A stretch of DNA of 6,699 bases from IMG/VR virus record IMGVR_UViG_2529292716_000007, one strand, 5' to 3'. The notes below the pieces were generated by a model, which had not been told where the DNA came from, ran no database searches, and worked only from the letters and a program-made list of their open reading frames with translations. This DNA is from a virus (lineage: Duplodnaviria > Heunggongvirae > Uroviricota > Caudoviricetes). Below, one piece after another: positions 1 to 6,699 of the stretch. Each line of letters begins with the position of its first letter. Within the stretch, counting starts at the first letter, position 1. Made by a program: the position numbers and the translations under genes.

Positions 1-457
1 TTAAATGTCTTTCCATTCCCTCCCTCGTCCGTCACGGTATTTATCCGTCATGCTGGATGAACGATGTCCAAGGAGCGCCTGAGTGAAATCACCGCCTTTT
101 TCTGCTGAGTGCAGGCGACCGGATAAACTTCGGATTTCATGAAATGGCGGTGGGTCACCTTCCCATTTCAATCCGGATGTGTCTCGGGCAATCCTGAACT
201 GTGCTGCGATTGTCCTGGCTGTCTTCCCTCCGAGTAACTTTTCGTTTTTACCGTTTATTTTTTTCAAGTTATCCAGTACATCGGCAAGTGTTAAATTCAA
301 TCTGGAAATCGTGGTGGGGAGAGAAATGCGAATTTTTGCCCCTGTTTTTTGTTGTTCCACGTATAGCCTGCCATCTCTTATATCCTCCCATCTCATAGCC
401 GCCAGATCTCCTTCGCGCTGTCCTGTTACCAGTGCAAGATCCATGCAAAGGCCGAAC
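1..457 (-). pseudogene. int: Lambda-family tyrosine integrase, C-terminal catalytic fragment; N-terminal part replaced by IS600
   Basis: Minus-strand ORF ends with the stop at 1-3 and a C-terminus ...HEIRSLSGRLH...LLGHRSSSMTDKYRDGRGREWKDI, closely resembling the lambda Int C-terminus (R/H boxes and catalytic Tyr in the LLGH...Y motif). The reading frame runs into the IS600 left end at 458, so the first codons of the track ORF (MSVKLRLPQ) are IS-derived and most of the N-terminus is absent. Confidence 0.8.
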
Positions 458-521
458 TGAGGTAGCCTGAGTTTAACGGACACTCCTTCCTGAAATAGAA
501 TGGCATCAGAAGGAGCTAATA

Positions 522-824
522 ATGAGCAGAAAAACCCAACGTTACTCTAAAGAGTTCAAAGCCGAAGCTGTCAGAACGGTTCCTGAAAATCAACTTTCGA
601 TCAGTGAAGGCGCTTCCCGATTATCTCTTCCTGAAGGCACTTTAGGACAATGGGTTACCGCCGCCAGAAAAGGGCTCGGTACTCCTGGTTCCCGCACGGT
701 GGCTGAACTGGAATCTGAAATTCTGCAACTGCGTAAGGCGTTAAATGAAGCTCGCCTTGAGCGAGATATATTAAAAAAAGCAACAGCGTATTTTGCACAG
801 GAGTCGCTGAAAAATACGCGTTAA
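522..824 (+). CDS. IS600 OrfA, IS3-family transposase N-terminal HTH/leucine-zipper subunit
   Basis: 100-aa ORF MSRKTQRYSKEFKAEAVR... with an HTH and a C-terminal leucine-zipper-like segment (LQLRKALNEARLERDILKKATAYF), the conserved IS3-family OrfA architecture. An A-rich SD-like stretch (AGAAGGAG) lies upstream at about 508-515. Confidence 0.85.
   Translation: MSRKTQRYSKEFKAEAVRTVPENQLSISEGASRLSLPEGTLGQWVTAARKGLGTPGSRTVAELESEILQLRKALNEARLERDILKKATAYFAQESLKNTR
773..780 (+). other. Putative -1 programmed ribosomal frameshift site (A AAA AAA G) joining orfA and orfB
   Basis: A7G run at 773-780 sits in the orfA 0-frame (TTA AAA AAA GCA). A -1 slip puts the ribosome into the orfB frame (start positions congruent to 2 mod 3). 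Position near the 3' end of orfA matches IS3-family frameshift windows. Confidence 0.6.
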
Positions 825-859
825 TCGAACAATGGCGACAACAATTTCCCATTGAAGCG

Positions 860-1678
860 ATGTGTCAGGTATTTGGTGTATCCAGGAGCGGTTATTACAA
901 CTGGGTACAGCATGAACCCTCAGACAGAAAACAAAGTGATGAGCGGCTAAAACTGGAGATTAAGGTGGCACATATCCGCACTCGCGAAACATATGGAACC
1001 CGGCGGCTCCAGACGGAGCTGGCAGAGAATGGCATCATCGTTGGTCGTGACCGACTGGCACGTCTTCGTAAGGAGCTAAGGCTACGCTGTAAGCAGAAAC
1101 GCAAGTTCAGAGCGACTACGAACTCGAACCACAATCTGCCAGTTGCGCCAAATCTGCTGAACCAGACGTTCGCTCCTACAGCACCAAATCAGGTCTGGGT
1201 GGCGGACCTGACGTATGTTGCCACACAGGAGGGATGGTTGTACCTCGCTGGCATCAAAGATGTTTATACGTGCGAAATTGTCGGCTACGCCATGGGAGAG
1301 CGCATGACAAAAGAGCTGACAGGTAAAGCCCTGTTTATGGCGCTCAGGAGCCAGCGCCCACCTGCCGGGCTAATCCACCACTCTGATCGAGGTTCACAGT
1401 ACTGCGCATACGATTACCGGGTCATACAGGAGCAGTCTGGTCTGAAAACATCAATGTCGCGTAAAGGTAACTGTTACGACAACGCTCCGATGGAAAGCTT
1501 CTGGGGAACGCTGAAAAATGAGAGCCTGAGCCACTATCGTTTTAATAACCGGGATGAAGCCATCTCAGTAATACGGGAATACATTGAGATTTTCTACAAT
1601 CGTCAGCGTCGTCACTCTCGTCTGGGGAATATCTCCCCGGCAGCCTTCAGGGAAAAATATCATCAGATGGCTGCTTAA
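860..1678 (+). CDS. IS600 OrfB, DDE transposase catalytic domain, normally made as an OrfAB fusion by -1 frameshifting
   Basis: 272-aa ORF in the -1 frame relative to orfA. It carries the DDE triad context (WVADLTY, HHSDRGSQY, ESFWGTLKNE) typical of IS3-family transposases. The frame is open upstream of the first ATG back towards the slippery site, so the biological product probably spans 522-1678 with a shift near 773-780. Confidence 0.85.
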   Translation: MCQVFGVSRSGYYNWVQHEPSDRKQSDERLKLEIKVAHIRTRETYGTRRLQTELAENGIIVGRDRLARLRKELRLRCKQKRKFRATTNSNHNLPVAPNLLNQTFAPTAPNQVWVADLTYVATQEGWLYLAGIKDVYTCEIVGYAMGERMTKELTGKALFMALRSQRPPAGLIHHSDRGSQYCAYDYRVIQEQSGLKTSMSRKGNCYDNAPMESFWGTLKNESLSHYRFNNRDEAISVIREYIEIFYNRQRRHSRLGNISPAAFREKYHQMAA

Positions 1679-1721
1679 AAAAAGAACAAATGGTAGTGTC
1701 CGCTATTGCCAGTACACCTCA

Positions 1722-2070
1722 ATTGCTCTGCGGCTTCGCTCAGAGCTGGCGTATGTTCCCGGCCTACTGATTCACACAGGTAATCAACGAAACCGGACAC
1801 CAGTTTTCGTTCGCGAGGCGTGATCGCCCCACCGACCGGAGTCCAGTAATCGAAACCCAGTTGCAGGAGTTTGAAAAAACGCTTGTGGAATGCGTAGTTA
1901 CACACACGCTTAAAGTCTGCGTGTATCCACTCACCTATTTTGATTTGATGCAGAAAATCGCAACTCTCCGGCGTCGCCGGGAGAAGTAATCCGGAAGAGG
2001 TTTGTTTGACCAGTTGTATATGTGCCATCGGCTTTCTCCGGTGGCACGGTGTTACACAGCAGGAGTTCAA
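1722..2070 (-). pseudogene. Hypothetical phage protein, 3' end truncated by the IS600 insertion
   Basis: Minus ORF whose last ~15 codons (…RCTGNSGHYHLFFF) lie inside the IS600 right end, so the native C-terminus is missing. Two candidate starts: ATG at 2070 overlapping the upstream stop as ATGA, or ATG at 2028 preceded by GGAGA at about 6 nt. No family recognised. Confidence 0.5.
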
Positions 2071-2354
2071 TCCTGCTCAAGATTGTAGATGAGTTTATTC
2101 TTCAGCAAAAGCAGAAAACCAGCCTTAAAACCAATCTCTTTCAAAACCCGTAATGATGTGACAAATTCGTCCTCACGCAAAATAAAACCGTCCGTCAGAA
2201 GTCCATTACAAAAATAAAATAACACAGCACCGCTCTTCCTTTGTTGAGATTGCAAACATCTAATGCGGCAATGGCTGACAATCGCTCCATTCTCAACGCG
2301 CACAGCATAGAGGCCATTTTCACTAAAAATTTCACGCAATTCTTCGATTTTCAT
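2067..2354 (-). CDS. Hypothetical protein, 95 aa
   Basis: ORF MKIEELREIFSENGLYAVRVENG... with an SD-like GGAAGGA about 10 nt upstream of the ATG at 2354. Its stop overlaps the next start (ATGA at 2067-2070), suggesting translational coupling. Function not recognised. Confidence 0.5.
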   Translation of the reverse strand: MKIEELREIFSENGLYAVRVENGAIVSHCRIRCLQSQQRKSGAVLFYFCNGLLTDGFILREDEFVTSLRVLKEIGFKAGFLLLLKNKLIYNLEQD

Positions 2355-2470
2355 CTTCAGAATCCTTCCAGATAAATAGCTCTCCCCTGTTCGGGGTCCA
2401 TCCCTCTTCTCCCTGCGCGCTACTTAAGTGAGTCGATTCTATCTGCGAAGGTGCGCGAATCAAATTCACC

Positions 2471-2528
2471 GGAAATAAACAACAAAAAACCCGCCGAAAC
2501 GCTGAGAGATCACAGCGATGGGCGGGTT
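2471..2528 (-). terminator. Rho-independent terminator at the 3' end of the hok transcript
   Basis: On the minus strand: GC-rich stem AACCCGCC...GGCGGGTT (plus 2488-2495 / 2521-2528) with a nested stem CGCTG/CAGCG, immediately followed by a U-tract (TTTTTTGTTGTTTATTT, plus 2471-2487). Confidence 0.6.
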
Positions 2529-2603
2529 AAGTGCGGGTGCGTTGAGGATGCCTGACACATCAGAGGTGGGCGGGGATGGGATCAGCTCCCCGCCCGGTCA
2601 CTC

Positions 2604-2759
2604 TTACTTCCTGGATTCGTAGTCTACGAAGACAGCGACCTCCGTCTGGCCGGTTCGGATTCGTACCTCACAGAGGTCTTTCCTCGTTACCAGTGCCGTC
2701 ACTATGACGGTTAAACAGATGACGATCAGGGCGATTAACATCGCCTTTTGCTGCTTCAT
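2604..2759 (-). CDS. hok: Hok/Gef-family type I toxin (small membrane-depolarising peptide)
   Basis: 51-aa product MKQQKAMLIALIVICLTVIVTALVTRKDLCEVRIRTGQTEVAVFVDYESRK: single transmembrane helix plus the conserved RKDLCEVRIRTGQTEVA Hok/Gef periplasmic motif, recalled as near-identical to chromosomal Hok proteins (HokD/RelF, HokC/Gef). AAGGAG SD lies 9 nt upstream of the ATG. Confidence 0.9.
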   Translation of the reverse strand: MKQQKAMLIALIVICLTVIVTALVTRKDLCEVRIRTGQTEVAVFVDYESRK

Positions 2760-2816
2760 AGCCTGCTTCTCCTTGCCTTTCGGCATGTAAGAGGCTAACC
2801 TACATGTGCAAAGCAT
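2604..2816 (-). CDS. mok: Mok-like leader ORF, in-frame N-terminal extension of hok (MLCTCRLASYMPKGKEKQA-Hok)
   Basis: 70-aa ORF from the track; the ML.TCR...K.KEK.AMKQ pattern resembles chromosomal MokC as I recall it. GAGG lies about 9 nt upstream. Assigning a Mok role is by analogy only. Confidence 0.5.
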   Translation of the reverse strand: MLCTCRLASYMPKGKEKQAMKQQKAMLIALIVICLTVIVTALVTRKDLCEVRIRTGQTEVAVFVDYESRK

Positions 2817-2935
2817 GAAATTGGCCTCAGATTAATGTTAAGCGTCTTGCCGGACGCGTAATGTTAACTGGGGCTTTTCTCTATCTGCCTTTTGGTGTTC
2901 ATGCCTGAAGCAGATAGCCTCAAGCACCCGCAGTC

Positions 2936-2965
2936 ATTCTACTTACCTCGCCAATATGAAATCAA
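2936..2965 (-). promoter_or_regulatory. Candidate sigma-70 promoter of the hok/mok mRNA
   Basis: Minus strand reads TTGATT (plus 2960-2965), an 18-nt spacer, then TAGAAT (plus 2936-2941). The predicted start near 2929 puts the 5' element TGCGGGTGCTTGAGG at the transcript start, consistent with the 5'/3' complementary pair noted in the findings. Confidence 0.45.
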
Positions 2966-2986
2966 TCAGAAAGGTGCCCCATAAAA

Positions 2987-3673
2987 TCACTCCTTCTCTT
3001 CTTTACCGTAGTGGAGTTGACCAATTTTGATAAGAGGGCGTCCCTGAGATTTGCGGTGTAGATTGGTATCGCGCAGAGAATACACACAGCCACAATATTC
3101 CTGCTGATAGAATTTTTCGCGCTTGCTGATTTCAATCATACGGGACGAGCCGCCCTGCTTGCGCCAGTTATAATCCCAGTACACCATGCCCGGATAATGC
3201 GCGACGGCTCGCCGCCCACAGTCGTTAACCTGCTGCATATTTTTCCAGCGTGAAATGCCCAGTGAACTGCTGATCACACTGAAACCATTTTCAGCGGCGT
3301 ACAGCGCTGTCCGCTCAAAACGCATGTCAAAACACATGGTGCAACGGATCCCTCGTTCGGGCTCCCATTCCATTCCTTTGGCTCGTTCAAACCAGTTGTC
3401 TGTGTCGTAATCAGCATCAATAAACGGCACGCCGTGTTGTTCAGCAAAGCGAATATTCTCATCCTTACGAATTAAATACTCTTTCTGAGGATGAATGTTC
3501 GGGTTGTAGAAAAAGATGGTGTAGTCGATTCCCGAGGCCTGAAGCGCCTCCATCACCTCACCGGAACATGGAGCACAGCAAGAGTGCAGTAGTAGTTTGT
3601 TTGCCCCGTTTGGGAGCTCCAATTTGGGCCGTTTGAAATCAGCAACTGTCATAAATATGTTTATTGGGGTCAT
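2987..3673 (-). CDS. DUF208/QueH-like (epoxyqueuosine reductase family) putative Fe-S protein, 228 aa
   Basis: ORF with an N-terminal [14 protein letters not shown] motif that I recall as the cluster-binding signature of the QueH/DUF208 family, plus further Cys pairs (CTMCFD, CGCVY). Assignment is from motif memory only. No convincing SD before either candidate start (3673 or 3652). Confidence 0.55.
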
Positions 3674-3792
3674 AAAAATATCAAAGAGTGTAGCATTAGA
3701 ACGGGGCTATCGGAAACAGATGTGTGACTGCTCCCCGCCCTTTCGGGTGGTCTCCTGATGATTTGAGGGTGCAGAAATCCCTCCGGTTAAGG

Positions 3793-3821
3793 ATTAAATT
3801 TTTAACAGTGCTAAATTTAAT
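3793..3821. promoter_or_regulatory. 9-bp perfect inverted repeat ATTAAATTT-N11-AAATTTAAT; candidate operator/protein-binding site
   Basis: Seen directly: 3793-3801 is the reverse complement of 3813-3821, separated by 11 bp, in an AT-rich intergenic stretch at the stop of the 3821-4234 ORF and upstream of the QueH-like gene. Confidence 0.3.
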
Positions 3822-4234
3822 TATTCAGTTCTGGATTTTGTCGCCCTGCGTATCCGCGCTTTCGCGTTACGCTCAATCTGTATCAGCTTTTCTATATTTC
3901 TCCGCCTTTCCTGTTCCTCCTGGCGCAATAGCCTTACATCATCTGCCAGTCTGGTTTCTCTTTTTGCCACAGAGAGCATCCAGTCAAACGGCTCCACAAC
4001 CGCACCGCAGATTTTACAGCGGACCTGACGCTCTTTTTCGTCAACCCGTACAGAGGCGTGATGGCAATATGGTCTTTCCGATGGCTCATAAAGAAAATTA
4101 ACCTGATTACGAGGGTCATCCTCTTTTACCGGAAATAAAACGATATTGCTTAACTCATCTTCTGGTTTTATTTCCATGCTCCTCTCCTTTGATGCGAATG
4201 CCAGCGGTAATTGAAGCCTGATAGCTAATTTCAT
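3821..4234 (-). CDS. Hypothetical small protein with putative zinc-ribbon (C-H-H...C-x2-C) and basic coiled-coil C-terminus
   Basis: ORF with an AGGAGG SD 11 nt upstream of the ATG at 4234, which directly abuts the stop of the upstream ORF. An alternative start at 4177 (MEIKPEDE...) has AAGGAG 6 nt upstream. Contains YCHHASVRVDEKERQVRCKICG followed by a charged heptad-like tail (LLRQEEQERRRNIEKLIQIERNAKARIRR). Family not recognised. Confidence 0.55.
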   Translation of the reverse strand: MKLAIRLQLPLAFASKERSMEIKPEDELSNIVLFPVKEDDPRNQVNFLYEPSERPYCHHASVRVDEKERQVRCKICGAVVEPFDWMLSVAKRETRLADDVRLLRQEEQERRRNIEKLIQIERNAKARIRRATKSRTE

Positions 4235-4657
4235 TCACAGTATCGCCTCCTGAAAATTACCCTGATAGAAAGCCAGTACACGCTGCATAGCTTCGCTCTT
4301 CCGGCACTCGCGACAGATTATATTCAGGCGCCTGTCGTAGCGGCGTATTTCTCCGTCAGGTAATGACCAGATAAGGTCCGGATCAACAACAACCGGTTTC
4401 CTCACCTTTACTCTCGAGAGTTTTTTGCGGGCGCTTTGCCAGTCCTTGCGAGCCTGTTCAGACGGGAATAAGCCGTAGCCAGAATTATATACATCACCAC
4501 TTGCGACCAGTTCTATGCATAAGCGACCGACAGACGCACGACTGATACCTGTTTCATCTGACAACTGCCGAATCGTGACCCGACCGTCCTGATGCACGAG
4601 TTCCACAATTCGCGTCTTCAGTTCTTCCCGCTGTTCGGGAGTAAAAGGTTTCGCCAT
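4235..4657 (-). CDS. Putative winged-helix DNA-binding protein, 140 aa (possibly YdaW-like)
   Basis: ORF with a strong SD (CAGGAGG) 5 nt upstream of the ATG at 4657, 14 nt after the DnaC-like stop. The N-terminal region (RVTIRQLSDETGISRASVGRLCIELVASGDV) looks like an HTH/winged-helix. Position immediately downstream of the DnaC-like gene matches ydaW in the Rac gene order; homology not verified. Confidence 0.55.
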   Translation of the reverse strand: MAKPFTPEQREELKTRIVELVHQDGRVTIRQLSDETGISRASVGRLCIELVASGDVYNSGYGLFPSEQARKDWQSARKKLSRVKVRKPVVVDPDLIWSLPDGEIRRYDRRLNIICRECRKSEAMQRVLAFYQGNFQEAIL

Positions 4658-4671
4658 AAATCCTCCTGAAA

Positions 4672-5418
4672 CTACTTAACAACCCTCGAATGGCTAACAT
4701 TCGGACGCCAGCTCTCCCAGTTAAAATTCACCCAGCGCCCGCCGTTCATGACCATGCGATCCATCACCCGCTCGCCGAGCAATGTTTTCATCACCTCATA
4801 GTTCAGGTTTGTCAGCATCCCCACGCTGCGCATCGACGCTGTCCGGCGATCAACAATCTGGTGCAGCACCACCTGCTCGTTTTTCGTCTCGCGCTGAATG
4901 CCAATTTCATCAAGAACCAGCAGATCCACTTCGCACAGCTCCCGCAAAAATTTTTCGCCTGACTGCCCGTCGTCATAGCTGGCGTGCAGGGCGCTCATAA
5001 CATCAGCCACGGTAACCACAATCACTGTCTGACCGTCTTTCAGCAGGCGATTCCCGATAGCTGCCGCTAAGTGATTCTTCCCGGTACCAGGTTTTCCGCT
5101 GAACGCAAAATTTGTACACCCGGTCATCAGTTCATCGGCGATGGATTTCGCCTGGCTTAACGCGTATCGCTGGCCGTCGTTCTGCACCTGGTAATTCGCA
5201 AACGAGCATTTACGGTGCAACGGCTGGATGCCTGAGCGATTCAGAATTTTTTCCACCCGCAACTGGCGATTCAGGCGGTTGATCTCCTCGCTACGTTTCT
5301 GGCCTTCAGCAAGTTGCCACTCGCGCCACTCCGCTACCGTTCTGAATGGGGCGGTTACATGTGGCGGGGTCAGTCGGCGGATGCGTTCCAGAACGCCGCC
5401 TGTCGCAATATTTTTCAT
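4672..5418 (-). CDS. ydaV: DnaC-like AAA+ helicase loader, prophage replication protein (YdaV-like)
   Basis: 248-aa ORF with Walker A (FSGKPGTGKNHLAAAIG) and Walker B (DLLVLDEIG), the DnaC/IstB-like ATPase fold. Length and N-terminus MKNIATG... match my recollection of Rac prophage YdaV. It follows the initiator gene with a 6-nt gap, as in phage O/P-type modules. Confidence 0.8.
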   Translation of the reverse strand: MKNIATGGVLERIRRLTPPHVTAPFRTVAEWREWQLAEGQKRSEEINRLNRQLRVEKILNRSGIQPLHRKCSFANYQVQNDGQRYALSQAKSIADELMTGCTNFAFSGKPGTGKNHLAAAIGNRLLKDGQTVIVVTVADVMSALHASYDDGQSGEKFLRELCEVDLLVLDEIGIQRETKNEQVVLHQIVDRRTASMRSVGMLTNLNYEVMKTLLGERVMDRMVMNGGRWVNFNWESWRPNVSHSRVVK

Positions 5419-5772
5419 GGTCCGTTACCCCCTGAAGCCTGGCGGGATCGCACTGTCCGGCAACGAGACGGTGTTAACCTGTCGGAGCAACGTCTCAGGC
5501 CGAACACCTTTCGGCGCGAACAGGCCCTGGTATTCATTGGCGATGCTGTGTCGAATCACCTGCTCAGGTGTAAAACCCTGCTGACGGAATTTTTCCAGTT
5601 CCCGTATCGCCCCGTTAGCGCCCTGCTCCGTTCGAATCGGTTTTCGCAATGCCTGTCTGAACCGGACCCACTCATGCCAGAGTGTTTCCGGCAACCAATC
5701 GGGCAGCTCAATAGCCTCCGGCTCGAATTTTTTAGACGCTCGTTTTTGGCGAGGGGGAGATCAGTATTTAGA

Positions 5773-5817
5773 TCTTCCTCTTCCTCTTCCTCTTCCTCTT
5801 CCTCTTCCTCTTCCTCT
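5773..5817. repeat. Hexanucleotide microsatellite (TCTTCC)7.5, i.e. (GAAGAG)n on the coding strand, encoding a poly-Glu tract
   Basis: Seen directly: 45 bp of perfect TCTTCC repeats. In the minus frame that is open across it, it reads as 14 consecutive Glu; the other two minus frames read (RG)n and (KR)n. Confidence 0.95.
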
Positions 5818-5960
5818 GGTAACGCTTTTTGATCCGTTTGTGTAACGCTGGCAGCGTTACCTTTTCGTTTCAGTTCGCGTATTTTTGTTACTCGCTCGTT
5901 TGTAACCGCCCGTTTTTTTTAGAGCTTTTTCCGTTATGACGTTCAAAGTTAGGTAGAGAA
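5818..5960. repeat. Iteron-like repeat cluster (GTAAC core, including a perfect 9-bp palindrome) adjacent to a T-rich tract; candidate phage origin embedded in the initiator gene
   Basis: GTAACGC at 5819 and 5842; palindrome GTAACGCTG-G-CAGCGTTAC at 5842-5860; TTTTGTTAC at 5882-5890; TTTGTAACCGCC at 5899-5910; then T8 and an AT-rich stretch at 5911-5960. Lambdoid origins lie inside the initiator gene as iterons plus an AT-rich region. Confidence 0.35.
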
Positions 5961-6085
5961 AGCCCTCCGTCATTTTCGACCAGCCATCCAACCTGAATTA
6001 ACGCATCAGCAAAACCAGACATAAAAGTGATGCGATCTATTGCACTTTTTGTAACGCCGCGAGCGTTACAATCTGCATTACCGTC

Positions 6086-6699
6086 TGGATTTGCCCCTAT
6101 ATTTCCAGACATCTGTTATCACTTAACCCATTACAAGCCCGCTGCCGCAGATATTCCCGTGGCGAGCGATAACCCAGCGCACTATGCGGATGCCATTCGT
6201 TATAATGCTCGAACGCCTCTGCAAGGTTCTTTGCTGCCGTTAACCCGTCTGGTTTGGGCATGATACTGATGTAGTCACGCTTTATCGTTTTCACGAAGCT
6301 CTCTGCTATTCCGTTACTCTCCGGACTCCGCACCGCCGTGTTCTTCGGTTCAAGTCCCAACATCCGGGCGAACTGGCGTGTTTCATTAGCCCGGTAGCAT
6401 GAACCATTATCCGTCAGCCACTCCACTGGAGACGACGGAAGATCGTTGCCGAAGCGGCGTTCCACCGCTCCCAGCATGACGTCCTGTACTGTTTCACTGT
6501 TGAAGCCGCCGGTAGTCACCGCCCAGTGCAGTGCCTCACGATCACAGCAGTCCAGCGCGAACGTGACACGCAGTCTCTCTCCGTTATCACAGCAGAACTC
6601 GAACCCGTCAGAGCACCATCGCTGATTGCTTTCTTTCACGGCCACTCTGCCTGTATGTGCCCGTTTCGATGGCGGTACAGCAGGTTTTCGCTCAAGCAA
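6086..6699 (-). mobile_element. IS2 (IS3 family), right-end portion; element continues beyond the window
   Basis: Plus strand from 6086 reads TGGATTTGCCCCTATATTTCCAGACATCTGTTATCACTTAACCC, the reverse complement of the IS2 right terminus (...GATGTCTGGAAATATAGGGGCAAATCCA) as I recall it, followed by the InsD coding region. Confidence 0.9.
6097..6699 (-). CDS. insD: IS2 transposase InsD (OrfB), 5'-partial at the window edge
   Basis: ORF product ...[31 protein letters not shown]...[31 protein letters not shown] matches the IS2 InsD C-terminal region from memory; stop at 6097-6099. Confidence 0.9.

Follow-up and report, generated by a model that had tools for sequence, protein, structure and literature searches.

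Why does a prophage replication gene contain a perfect hexanucleotide microsatellite, and does the repeat do anything there? The question is raised by a 6,699-nt stretch of DNA from the virus record IMGVR_UViG_2529292716_000007 (Caudoviricetes), which was analyzed over its whole length and is called the window below. From its letters alone, the repeat had been read as an acidic linker of changeable length inside a replication initiator. We consider it very probable that the repeat is a VNTR derived from the DNA for the acidic linker of a YdaU-family initiator, and that in the window it is a neutral, slipping microsatellite in a Shigella sonnei-type gene killed by IS2 and frameshifts. The tract, its host gene, its length variation, its relation to published typing markers and a candidate replication origin beside it are described below, and the coordinates of all features are collected in Table 1.

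The hexanucleotide tract

Tandem Repeats Finder reported the segment 5773-5817 with period 6, 7.5 copies, 100% matches, consensus TCTTCC and a score of 90, in agreement with the raw sequence. On the gene strand the tract consists of seven AGAGGA units followed by AGA, which corresponds to 7 whole units in the published way of counting. Its ancestral minus-strand frame is an alternation of GAG and GAA, that is, poly-Glu, with 14 Glu residues if translated. The longest period-6 self-match run spans 39 bases, compared with a mean of 6.1 and a maximum of 11 in 2000 shuffles of the window, and runs of this length are expected about 3e-20 times by chance. The perfect repeat noticed in the sequence-only reading is therefore confirmed. 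The other tandem arrays detected in the window by the same program number two, both of them weak and of two copies. Formation of a triplex (H-DNA) was considered and rejected: the tract is not a mirror repeat, since GGAAGA reversed (AGAAGG) is not its own cyclic permutation.

The same repeat occurs at the same locus, in steps of whole units, in 21 other S. sonnei-type sequences and in more than 200 E. coli and viral contigs; thus the tract is not an artefact of assembly. A sequencing or assembly error in its length is hardly credible either. Short repeats are sometimes miscalled on some platforms, and an adjacent A-run is given as A8 or A9 in different assemblies, but the 45-bp tract is shorter than a sequencing read, its alleles differ by exact 6-bp steps of perfect units, and laboratory fragment sizing in published typing studies (PMC2806262, PMC3420240) gives similar variation.

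The host gene and its inactivation

Minus-strand translations of positions 5425-6112 revealed a single gene split across three frames. The N-terminal piece (…GVTKSAIDRITFMSGFADALIQVGWL…NGKSSKK) ends in a stop codon, the middle piece (…KKRAVTNERVTKIRELKRKGNAASVTQTDQKALP-E14-DLNTDLP…) lies in another frame, and the C-terminal piece (…KKFEPEAIELPDWLPETLWHEWVRF…IPPGFRG*) is in the third. Indels aside, the remnant shows ∼99% DNA identity to genes under the PGAP name quoted below; the intact 263-codon copies of E. coli COL60J and phage Rac were used as references for the alignment of lesions. Megablast located the segment in five phage records and in 1,419 of the 5,426 complete E. coli genomes searched; in these matches the underlying features are annotated as 'phage replication initiator YdaU family protein' (the PGAP name), 'ydaU' or 'DNA replication protein O' and are flanked by ydaT and the DnaC-like ydaV. 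The full length of an intact homologue is covered by a match to phrog_2509, 'replication initiation protein' (E = 3.9e-89); a Pfam search with the intact homologue matched no family. In the window, ydaV lies directly downstream of the remnant and marks the replication module, which in homologous loci is present in full, with cro/ydaT-like genes upstream of ydaU and ydaV downstream; the upstream side in the window is occupied by IS2. Both its sequence and its position in the module assign the remnant to the YdaU-family initiators.

Three lesions separate this copy from an intact initiator ORF. IS2 stands in place of the first ∼48 codons and the promoter side, and ydaU homology ends at 6085/6086. 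An A-run has grown by two bases upstream of the tract, and a 10-bp deletion just 3' of the tract makes a second frameshift. In the window's ORF list, the tract is not covered by any minus-strand ORF that has a start codon. The ydaU copy is thus a pseudogene hit three times, by IS2, a +2 frameshift and a -10 deletion, and because the gene is dead and no minus-strand ORF with a start codon spans the tract, no poly-glutamate linker is encoded in the window. The frameshifting A-run is itself polymorphic: intact genes have A6, most S. sonnei-type copies A8, and three of these copies, S. sonnei 53G among them, A9. The A9 form restores the ydaU frame as far as the 10-bp deletion, and S. sonnei 53G (L134) has a 224-aa ORF.

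An ORF on the plus strand (5314-5832, 172 aa, TTG start), found mechanically, does span the tract and reads it as SSSSSSSSSSSSSSS, so that the repeat could in principle belong to a poly-serine gene. We give this reading almost no credence. The ORF runs antisense to ydaV and ydaU, whose homology accounts for all the conservation, the matching open stretch in an intact homologous locus (L002) has 77 aa only, and the ORF has no independent support; no conserved plus-strand frame with homologues of its own and signs of purifying selection was seen.

Table 1. Features of the ydaU-ydaV region of the window
Feature	Position	Strand	Basis or remark
ydaV, intact, DnaC/IstB-like helicase-loader gene	4672..5418	-	Pfam IstB_IS21 E = 1e-19, Bac_DnaA; annotated ydaV in homologous loci
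YdaU-family phage replication-initiator gene remnant, codon ∼49 to stop	5425..6085	-	Three-frame translations; alignment to intact 263-codon genes; phrog_2509
10-bp deletion junction (TCCCCCTAAA, between direct repeats TCCCCCT), just 3' of the tract	5751..5759 (about)	-	Alignment columns 481-490
Hexanucleotide VNTR, (TCTTCC)7.5 on the plus strand	5773..5817	-	Tandem Repeats Finder; tract-frame translation; alignment with 3.5- and 8.5-unit homologues
GCGTTAC half-site, last heptamer of the array, a single base from the tract	5819..5825	-	Same offset in 10 diverged family members
19-bp palindrome GTAACGC-N5-GCGTTAC, heptamer cluster 2, candidate initiator-binding site	5842..5860	.	Conserved across genera
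A8 homopolymer (A6 in intact genes), +2 frameshift upstream of the tract	5913..5920	-	Alignment columns 313-314; A-run lengths across loci
SS10 forward primer site, one mismatch (A for T at 5966)	5951..5970	-	Primer from PMC3420240 Table 1
Unlabelled SF1 primer site (CTGGTTTTGCTGATGCGTTA), exact match	5999..6018	-	Primer from PMC2806262 supplement
19-bp palindrome GTAACGC-N5-GCGTTAC, heptamer cluster 1	6051..6069	.	209 bp from the other palindrome
IS2 end, transposase ORF on the minus strand	6086..6699	-	100% identity to 'IS3-like element IS2 family transposase' features; rve domains

The glutamate run in intact homologues

In intact homologues the tract is translated as LP-EEEEEE-D, with the Glu residues at 138-143. 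Of 120 family representatives, drawn from seven genera (E. coli, Salmonella, Citrobacter, Klebsiella, Enterobacter, Serratia and Yersinia), 118 have a run of 2-10 Glu in this position after the motif (K/N)-x-L-P. Besides full-length matches, PHROG families match residues 4-131 or 118/138-262, which splits the protein at about 131/138. An AlphaFold2 model built from a 26-sequence alignment has two confident domains, N-terminal (about residues 10-100) and C-terminal (161-235, with pLDDT 82-92 for 161-230), and between them residues 123-160 have pLDDT below 50. In a set of 123 loci, one and the same N-terminal module continues, directly after the Glu run, into at least six unrelated C-terminal modules. 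On these grounds the Glu run of intact YdaU is predicted to be a disordered linker between two swappable domains. The idea of a poly-glutamate linker between the N- and C-terminal parts of the initiator, put forward from the sequence alone, is thus supported for the intact homologues by the PHROG split and the AlphaFold2 confidence values and does not hold for the window, where the gene is a pseudogene and no such ORF covers the tract.

The Glu tract coincides with a mosaic junction, and the repeat may act as a recombination joint between modules. The C-terminal modules that follow it measure 112 to 233 aa, for example in 376-aa variants (loci L004-L123; proteins P0011-P0058).

A search of PDB folds with the AlphaFold2 model returned no match with E below 0.4; the weak top matches were winged-helix regulators, which are suggestive only. 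The NCBIfam search of intact YdaU gave one weak match, of the last 19 residues to the C-terminus of DnaT and far below the cut-off. The YdaU tail concerned (…PD..IPPGFRG, residues 244-262 of the L002 protein, equivalent to 5425-5484 in the window) weakly resembles the DnaT C-terminus (NF002770, E = 0.006). This tail is nearly invariant across the family and is duplicated in one protein (P0075).

Copy-number variation of the tract

A comparison across homologues, proposed as a check along with the linker, demonstrated that the tract varies in whole units from 2.5 to 8.5 and has no single fixed number. Among the 22 S. sonnei-type copies that have the 10-bp deletion, tracts of 3.5 units were found in eight, 4.5 in two, 5.5 in one, 6.5 in five, 7.5 in three and 8.5 in three, which amounts to 6 alleles and a Nei diversity of 0.77. 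Every flank sub-haplotype, defined by A or T at 5966 and by A8 or A9, has several tract alleles. Five sequences with identical flanks of 250 and 350 bp carry four alleles (3.5, 6.5, 7.5 and 8.5 units), bearing out the expectation that copy number can differ between otherwise identical prophages. The only other contig that shares the IS2 junction of the window, obtained from a read assembly, has 4.5 units. The allele distribution in S. sonnei is bimodal, with 3.5 units on one side and 6.5-8.5 on the other, a pattern that could be due in part to lineage structure instead of numerous separate events.

Beyond the S. sonnei type, a pattern scan of viral contigs found tracts of 2.5 to 8.5 units with a mode of 3.5, and within each C-terminal subtype the number of Glu residues changes in steps of two (4/6/8, 7/9/11, 4 to 16). 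A second sample, matched on the N-terminal domain, comprised the 80 closest relatives at 96-100% identity; it covers the window's subtype and close relatives, and was unselected on the tract. It contained tracts of 2.5 (7 contigs), 3.5 (55), 4.5 (12), 6.5 (1) and 7.5 units (1), and both long alleles, of 6.5 and 7.5 units, were in truncated ORFs. The 3.5-unit length was found in 27 of 30 full-length single-piece rows of an even sample of complete E. coli genomes. Intact E. coli genes have mostly 3.5 units and range from 2.5 to 5.5, and intact ORFs with 2.5, 3.5, 4.5 and 5.5 units are 260, 262, 264 and 266 aa long, so the claim that unit changes keep the reading frame is upheld. The longest intact alleles have 5.5 units, that is, 10 Glu.

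Alleles of 6.5 or more units were found only in broken genes among the sequences compared. The lone long allele of E. coli, with 8.5 units in strain 2013C-4974, is in a gene annotated as frameshifted. The restriction of long alleles to inactivated copies may be a sign that working initiators tolerate only a limited length of acidic linker. The link between long alleles and pseudogenes is one that we infer from two independent lineages only, the S. sonnei type and E. coli 2013C-4974. Lengths in working genes are confined to about 4-10 Glu; longer runs may be selected against or may simply be rare.

These lengths bear on the proposal that the tract in the window is a working, length-tunable acidic linker, a contingency locus at the protein level whose copy number adaptively modulates the initiator. 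The conserved position of the Glu run across genera, the disordered linker and the in-frame length variation of intact homologues are what such a linker would be expected to display. However, the window gene has lost its first ∼48 codons and promoter side to IS2, its tract is flanked by the +2 and -10 frameshifts, and no minus-strand ORF with a start codon runs over the tract. Moreover, the narrow range of intact lengths, mostly 6 Glu and at most 10-11, resembles constraint rather than tuning, and steps of six bases are unable to switch the frame on or off. We therefore regard adaptive tuning in the window as very improbable. The phase-variable contingency loci of Haemophilus and Neisseria are simple-sequence repeats with a high rate of slippage mutation, and they switch through units that are not multiples of three or through promoter spacers. 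In contrast, a 6-base unit cannot shift the frame, and the window gene has nothing left to switch. Repeat number does not switch expression at this locus: the intact alleles of 260-266 aa are all in frame, and the window gene is inactivated by lesions outside the repeat.

Proposed origin and fate of the tract

According to the explanation that we favor, that of a neutral microsatellite in a dead linker-coding gene, (GGAAGA)n would have arisen in DNA for the acidic disordered linker of a YdaU-family initiator of lambdoid prophages, an analogue of lambda O. Each unit adds Glu-Glu to the linker of an intact gene and leaves the frame unchanged. In the window, the IS2 insertion and the two frameshifts have inactivated the gene, so that the tract is no longer translated within an initiator. 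Whole units would be gained and lost by slipped-strand mispairing during replication, and the window tract would have expanded from the common 3.5 units to 7.5. In the dead S. sonnei remnant, changes in length would be neutral because the gene is already inactive, and long alleles could persist for that reason.

Slippage is most likely the mechanism, since lengths change in exact 6-bp steps, the units are perfect and long tracts vary more. Recombination between alleles could be another source of length change. The neutrality of the tract in the window is likewise what we infer from the state of its gene.

Relation to published typing markers

The locus has been used for the typing of Shigella. 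Marker SF1 of Wang et al. (2009, BMC Microbiol 9:278, PMC2806262, Table S1) has the 6-bp unit TCTTCC and is assigned to S0917, a 'putative bacteriophage protein'. It was described with 2-3 copies in three reference strains, with a range of N and 1-4 in 242 isolates, and with amplicons of 242/248 bp (PMC2806262). The unlabelled SF1 primer matches the window exactly. The labelled primer (GGGATTTAGGGGGAGATCAG) covers the 10 bases that the window has lost; it has no match in the window at up to 3 mismatches, and its site is present in 67 homologous loci. PCR of SF1 would thus fail on the window because the deletion removes the second primer site. In-silico SF1 amplicons in the homologues measure 242, 248 and 254 bp, for 2, 3 and 4 units, and equal the published 242/248 bp. 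Since unit, primers and amplicon sizes agree, the locus is the published S. flexneri marker SF1. Marker and window have in common the TCTTCC unit and the gene of a prophage protein; they differ in length, with 1-4 units or no product in S. flexneri versus 7 whole units in the window.

The locus is probably also SS10, a marker of the S. sonnei MLVA scheme of Liang et al. (2007), whose forward primer (ACGGTGGGCTTTCTCTACCT) is listed in Table 1 of Koh et al. (2012, PMC3420240). A full-text search for primer strings led to this paper only. The assignment comes from the one primer together with similar allele statistics: that table gives SS10 6 alleles and D = 0.75 in 40 strains, and the in-silico figures are 6 alleles and D = 0.77. 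The primer matches S. sonnei 53G and five further S. sonnei-type loci exactly, at a site 134 nt upstream of the tract. This site is polymorphic at 5966, with A in the window and 14 other copies and T in six.

The variability of the repeat is thus already known and is not new, because the locus is the published SF1 and probably SS10; it is a long-used epidemiological marker, and its behaviour, with slippage by whole units and a larger number of alleles in long tracts, is textbook. Our analysis places the marker in the linker-coding region of a YdaU-family initiator gene, which in S. sonnei is a triple-hit pseudogene. The 10-bp deletion and the T/A polymorphism, both located in primer sites, matter for PCR typing and for the extraction of the marker from genomes.

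Enterobacterial typing makes use of in-frame coding hexanucleotide VNTRs, for example the 6-bp Salmonella loci STTR5 and STTR6. Like the tract described here, these loci have six-base units in coding or prophage sequence, change by whole units and serve epidemiology. They differ in gene and unit, and the host gene in the window is already a pseudogene.

Heptamers and a candidate embedded origin

The heptamer GCGTTAC/GTAACGC occurs 6 times in the window versus 0.71 expected, and five of the six copies lie inside ydaU. Ten diverged family members have 5-8 exact heptamers per gene versus 0.06-0.11 from codon shuffles. The spacing between heptamers is exactly 12 bp in 29 of 50 cases, and the last heptamer keeps a constant offset to the tract in the ten diverged members. 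Every family member examined has the tract after the last of 5-8 phased heptamers, with one base between them. The heptamers are retained in Erwinia, Rahnella, Yersinia, Pantoea, Mixta and Samsonia despite diverged codons, and some family members read them in different frames (GNAASVT versus KVTLAAL). Indels in the YdaU-family proteins coincide exactly with the heptamer clusters. Taken together, this pattern makes the heptamers candidates for initiator binding at an origin that would lie within YdaU-family genes. Phased heptamer arrays were also noted in individual loci L002, L004, L008, L012 and L141-L147.

Adjacency of heptamer and tract in the cross-genus matches was partly selected for, because the 20-nt pattern used in that scan (AAAGCGTTACCAGAGGAAGA) itself required a heptamer together with the start of the tract. 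Among the eight genome matches to this pattern, that at 6562-6581 in an Acetatifactor MAG of the Firmicutes (L140) was rejected as a chance match: it falls in an unrelated ORF with 1.5 units and no heptamer array.

An origin of this kind raises the possibility that the tract, also or instead, is a cis-acting element, the purine-rich arm of a lambda-like origin within the initiator gene, and that unit number alters the geometry of the origin. The over-representation, 12-bp phasing and fixed offset of the heptamers, their retention across genera through codon divergence and frame change, and the protein indels at heptamer clusters all speak for such an arrangement, as does gene O of lambda, where a purine-rich, AT-rich stretch comes after the four annotated iterons, in the segment that joins the N- and C-terminal regions. 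However, the evidence is purely positional, and the cross-genus part of it was shaped by the scan pattern. Furthermore, the tract is GC-richer than a typical unwinding element, its strict GAG-GAA alternation is expected from slippage alone, and its length is free to vary between 2.5 and 5.5 units in intact prophages. We therefore consider a role of the tract in an origin improbable. Slightly less probable still is a specific version, in which (GGAAGA)n forms the purine-rich arm of the YdaU-gene origin and unit changes shift the distance from the heptamers to downstream A/T-rich and C-tract elements, tuning the firing of the origin in live prophages. A literature search on YdaU and on the Rac origin oriJ found no paper that locates the origin or describes the repeat.

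The likeness to lambda O and ori-lambda extends to gene order and protein layout. In lambda, as in the YdaU modules, a two-domain initiator is encoded just upstream of the helicase-loader gene. Both proteins have a low-complexity region between their N- and C-terminal parts, and both genes have, within the coding sequence, a purine-rich stretch after an array of repeated candidate binding sites. The two systems differ in that YdaU has no detectable family match to lambda O, save a PHROG 'O-like' match to its C-terminal part. Besides, the lambda sites are 18-bp iterons versus 7-mers at 12-bp spacing in the ydaU genes, and the central region is Glu-rich in YdaU versus Lys/Ser-rich in lambda O.

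Through its phased heptamers, which are independent of the reading frame, the origin of this widespread prophage replication module would become open to a direct test. The heptamers and the putative origin are the sole part of the locus that might repay experiments.

The prophage remnant as a whole

The stretch 1-6086 of the window was compared with ten NCBI genome loci, drawn from many genomes that encode an identical YdaV protein. Identity was 99.9-100% apart from tract length. One of the ten is HE616528.1, an accession cited in S. sonnei papers, and the IS600 of the window is 100% identical to S. sonnei plasmid copies. From these matches, the window is identified as an S. sonnei-type defective prophage full of insertion sequences.

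Several further genes were observed in the rest of the remnant (1-483, 457-1722, 2604-2816 and 2987-3673). A 160-aa ORF of the phage integrase family adjoins the complete IS600. A small ORF sits where related loci have a gene of the Hok/Gef family, and the remnant also carries an intact gene for QueH (epoxyqueuosine reductase).
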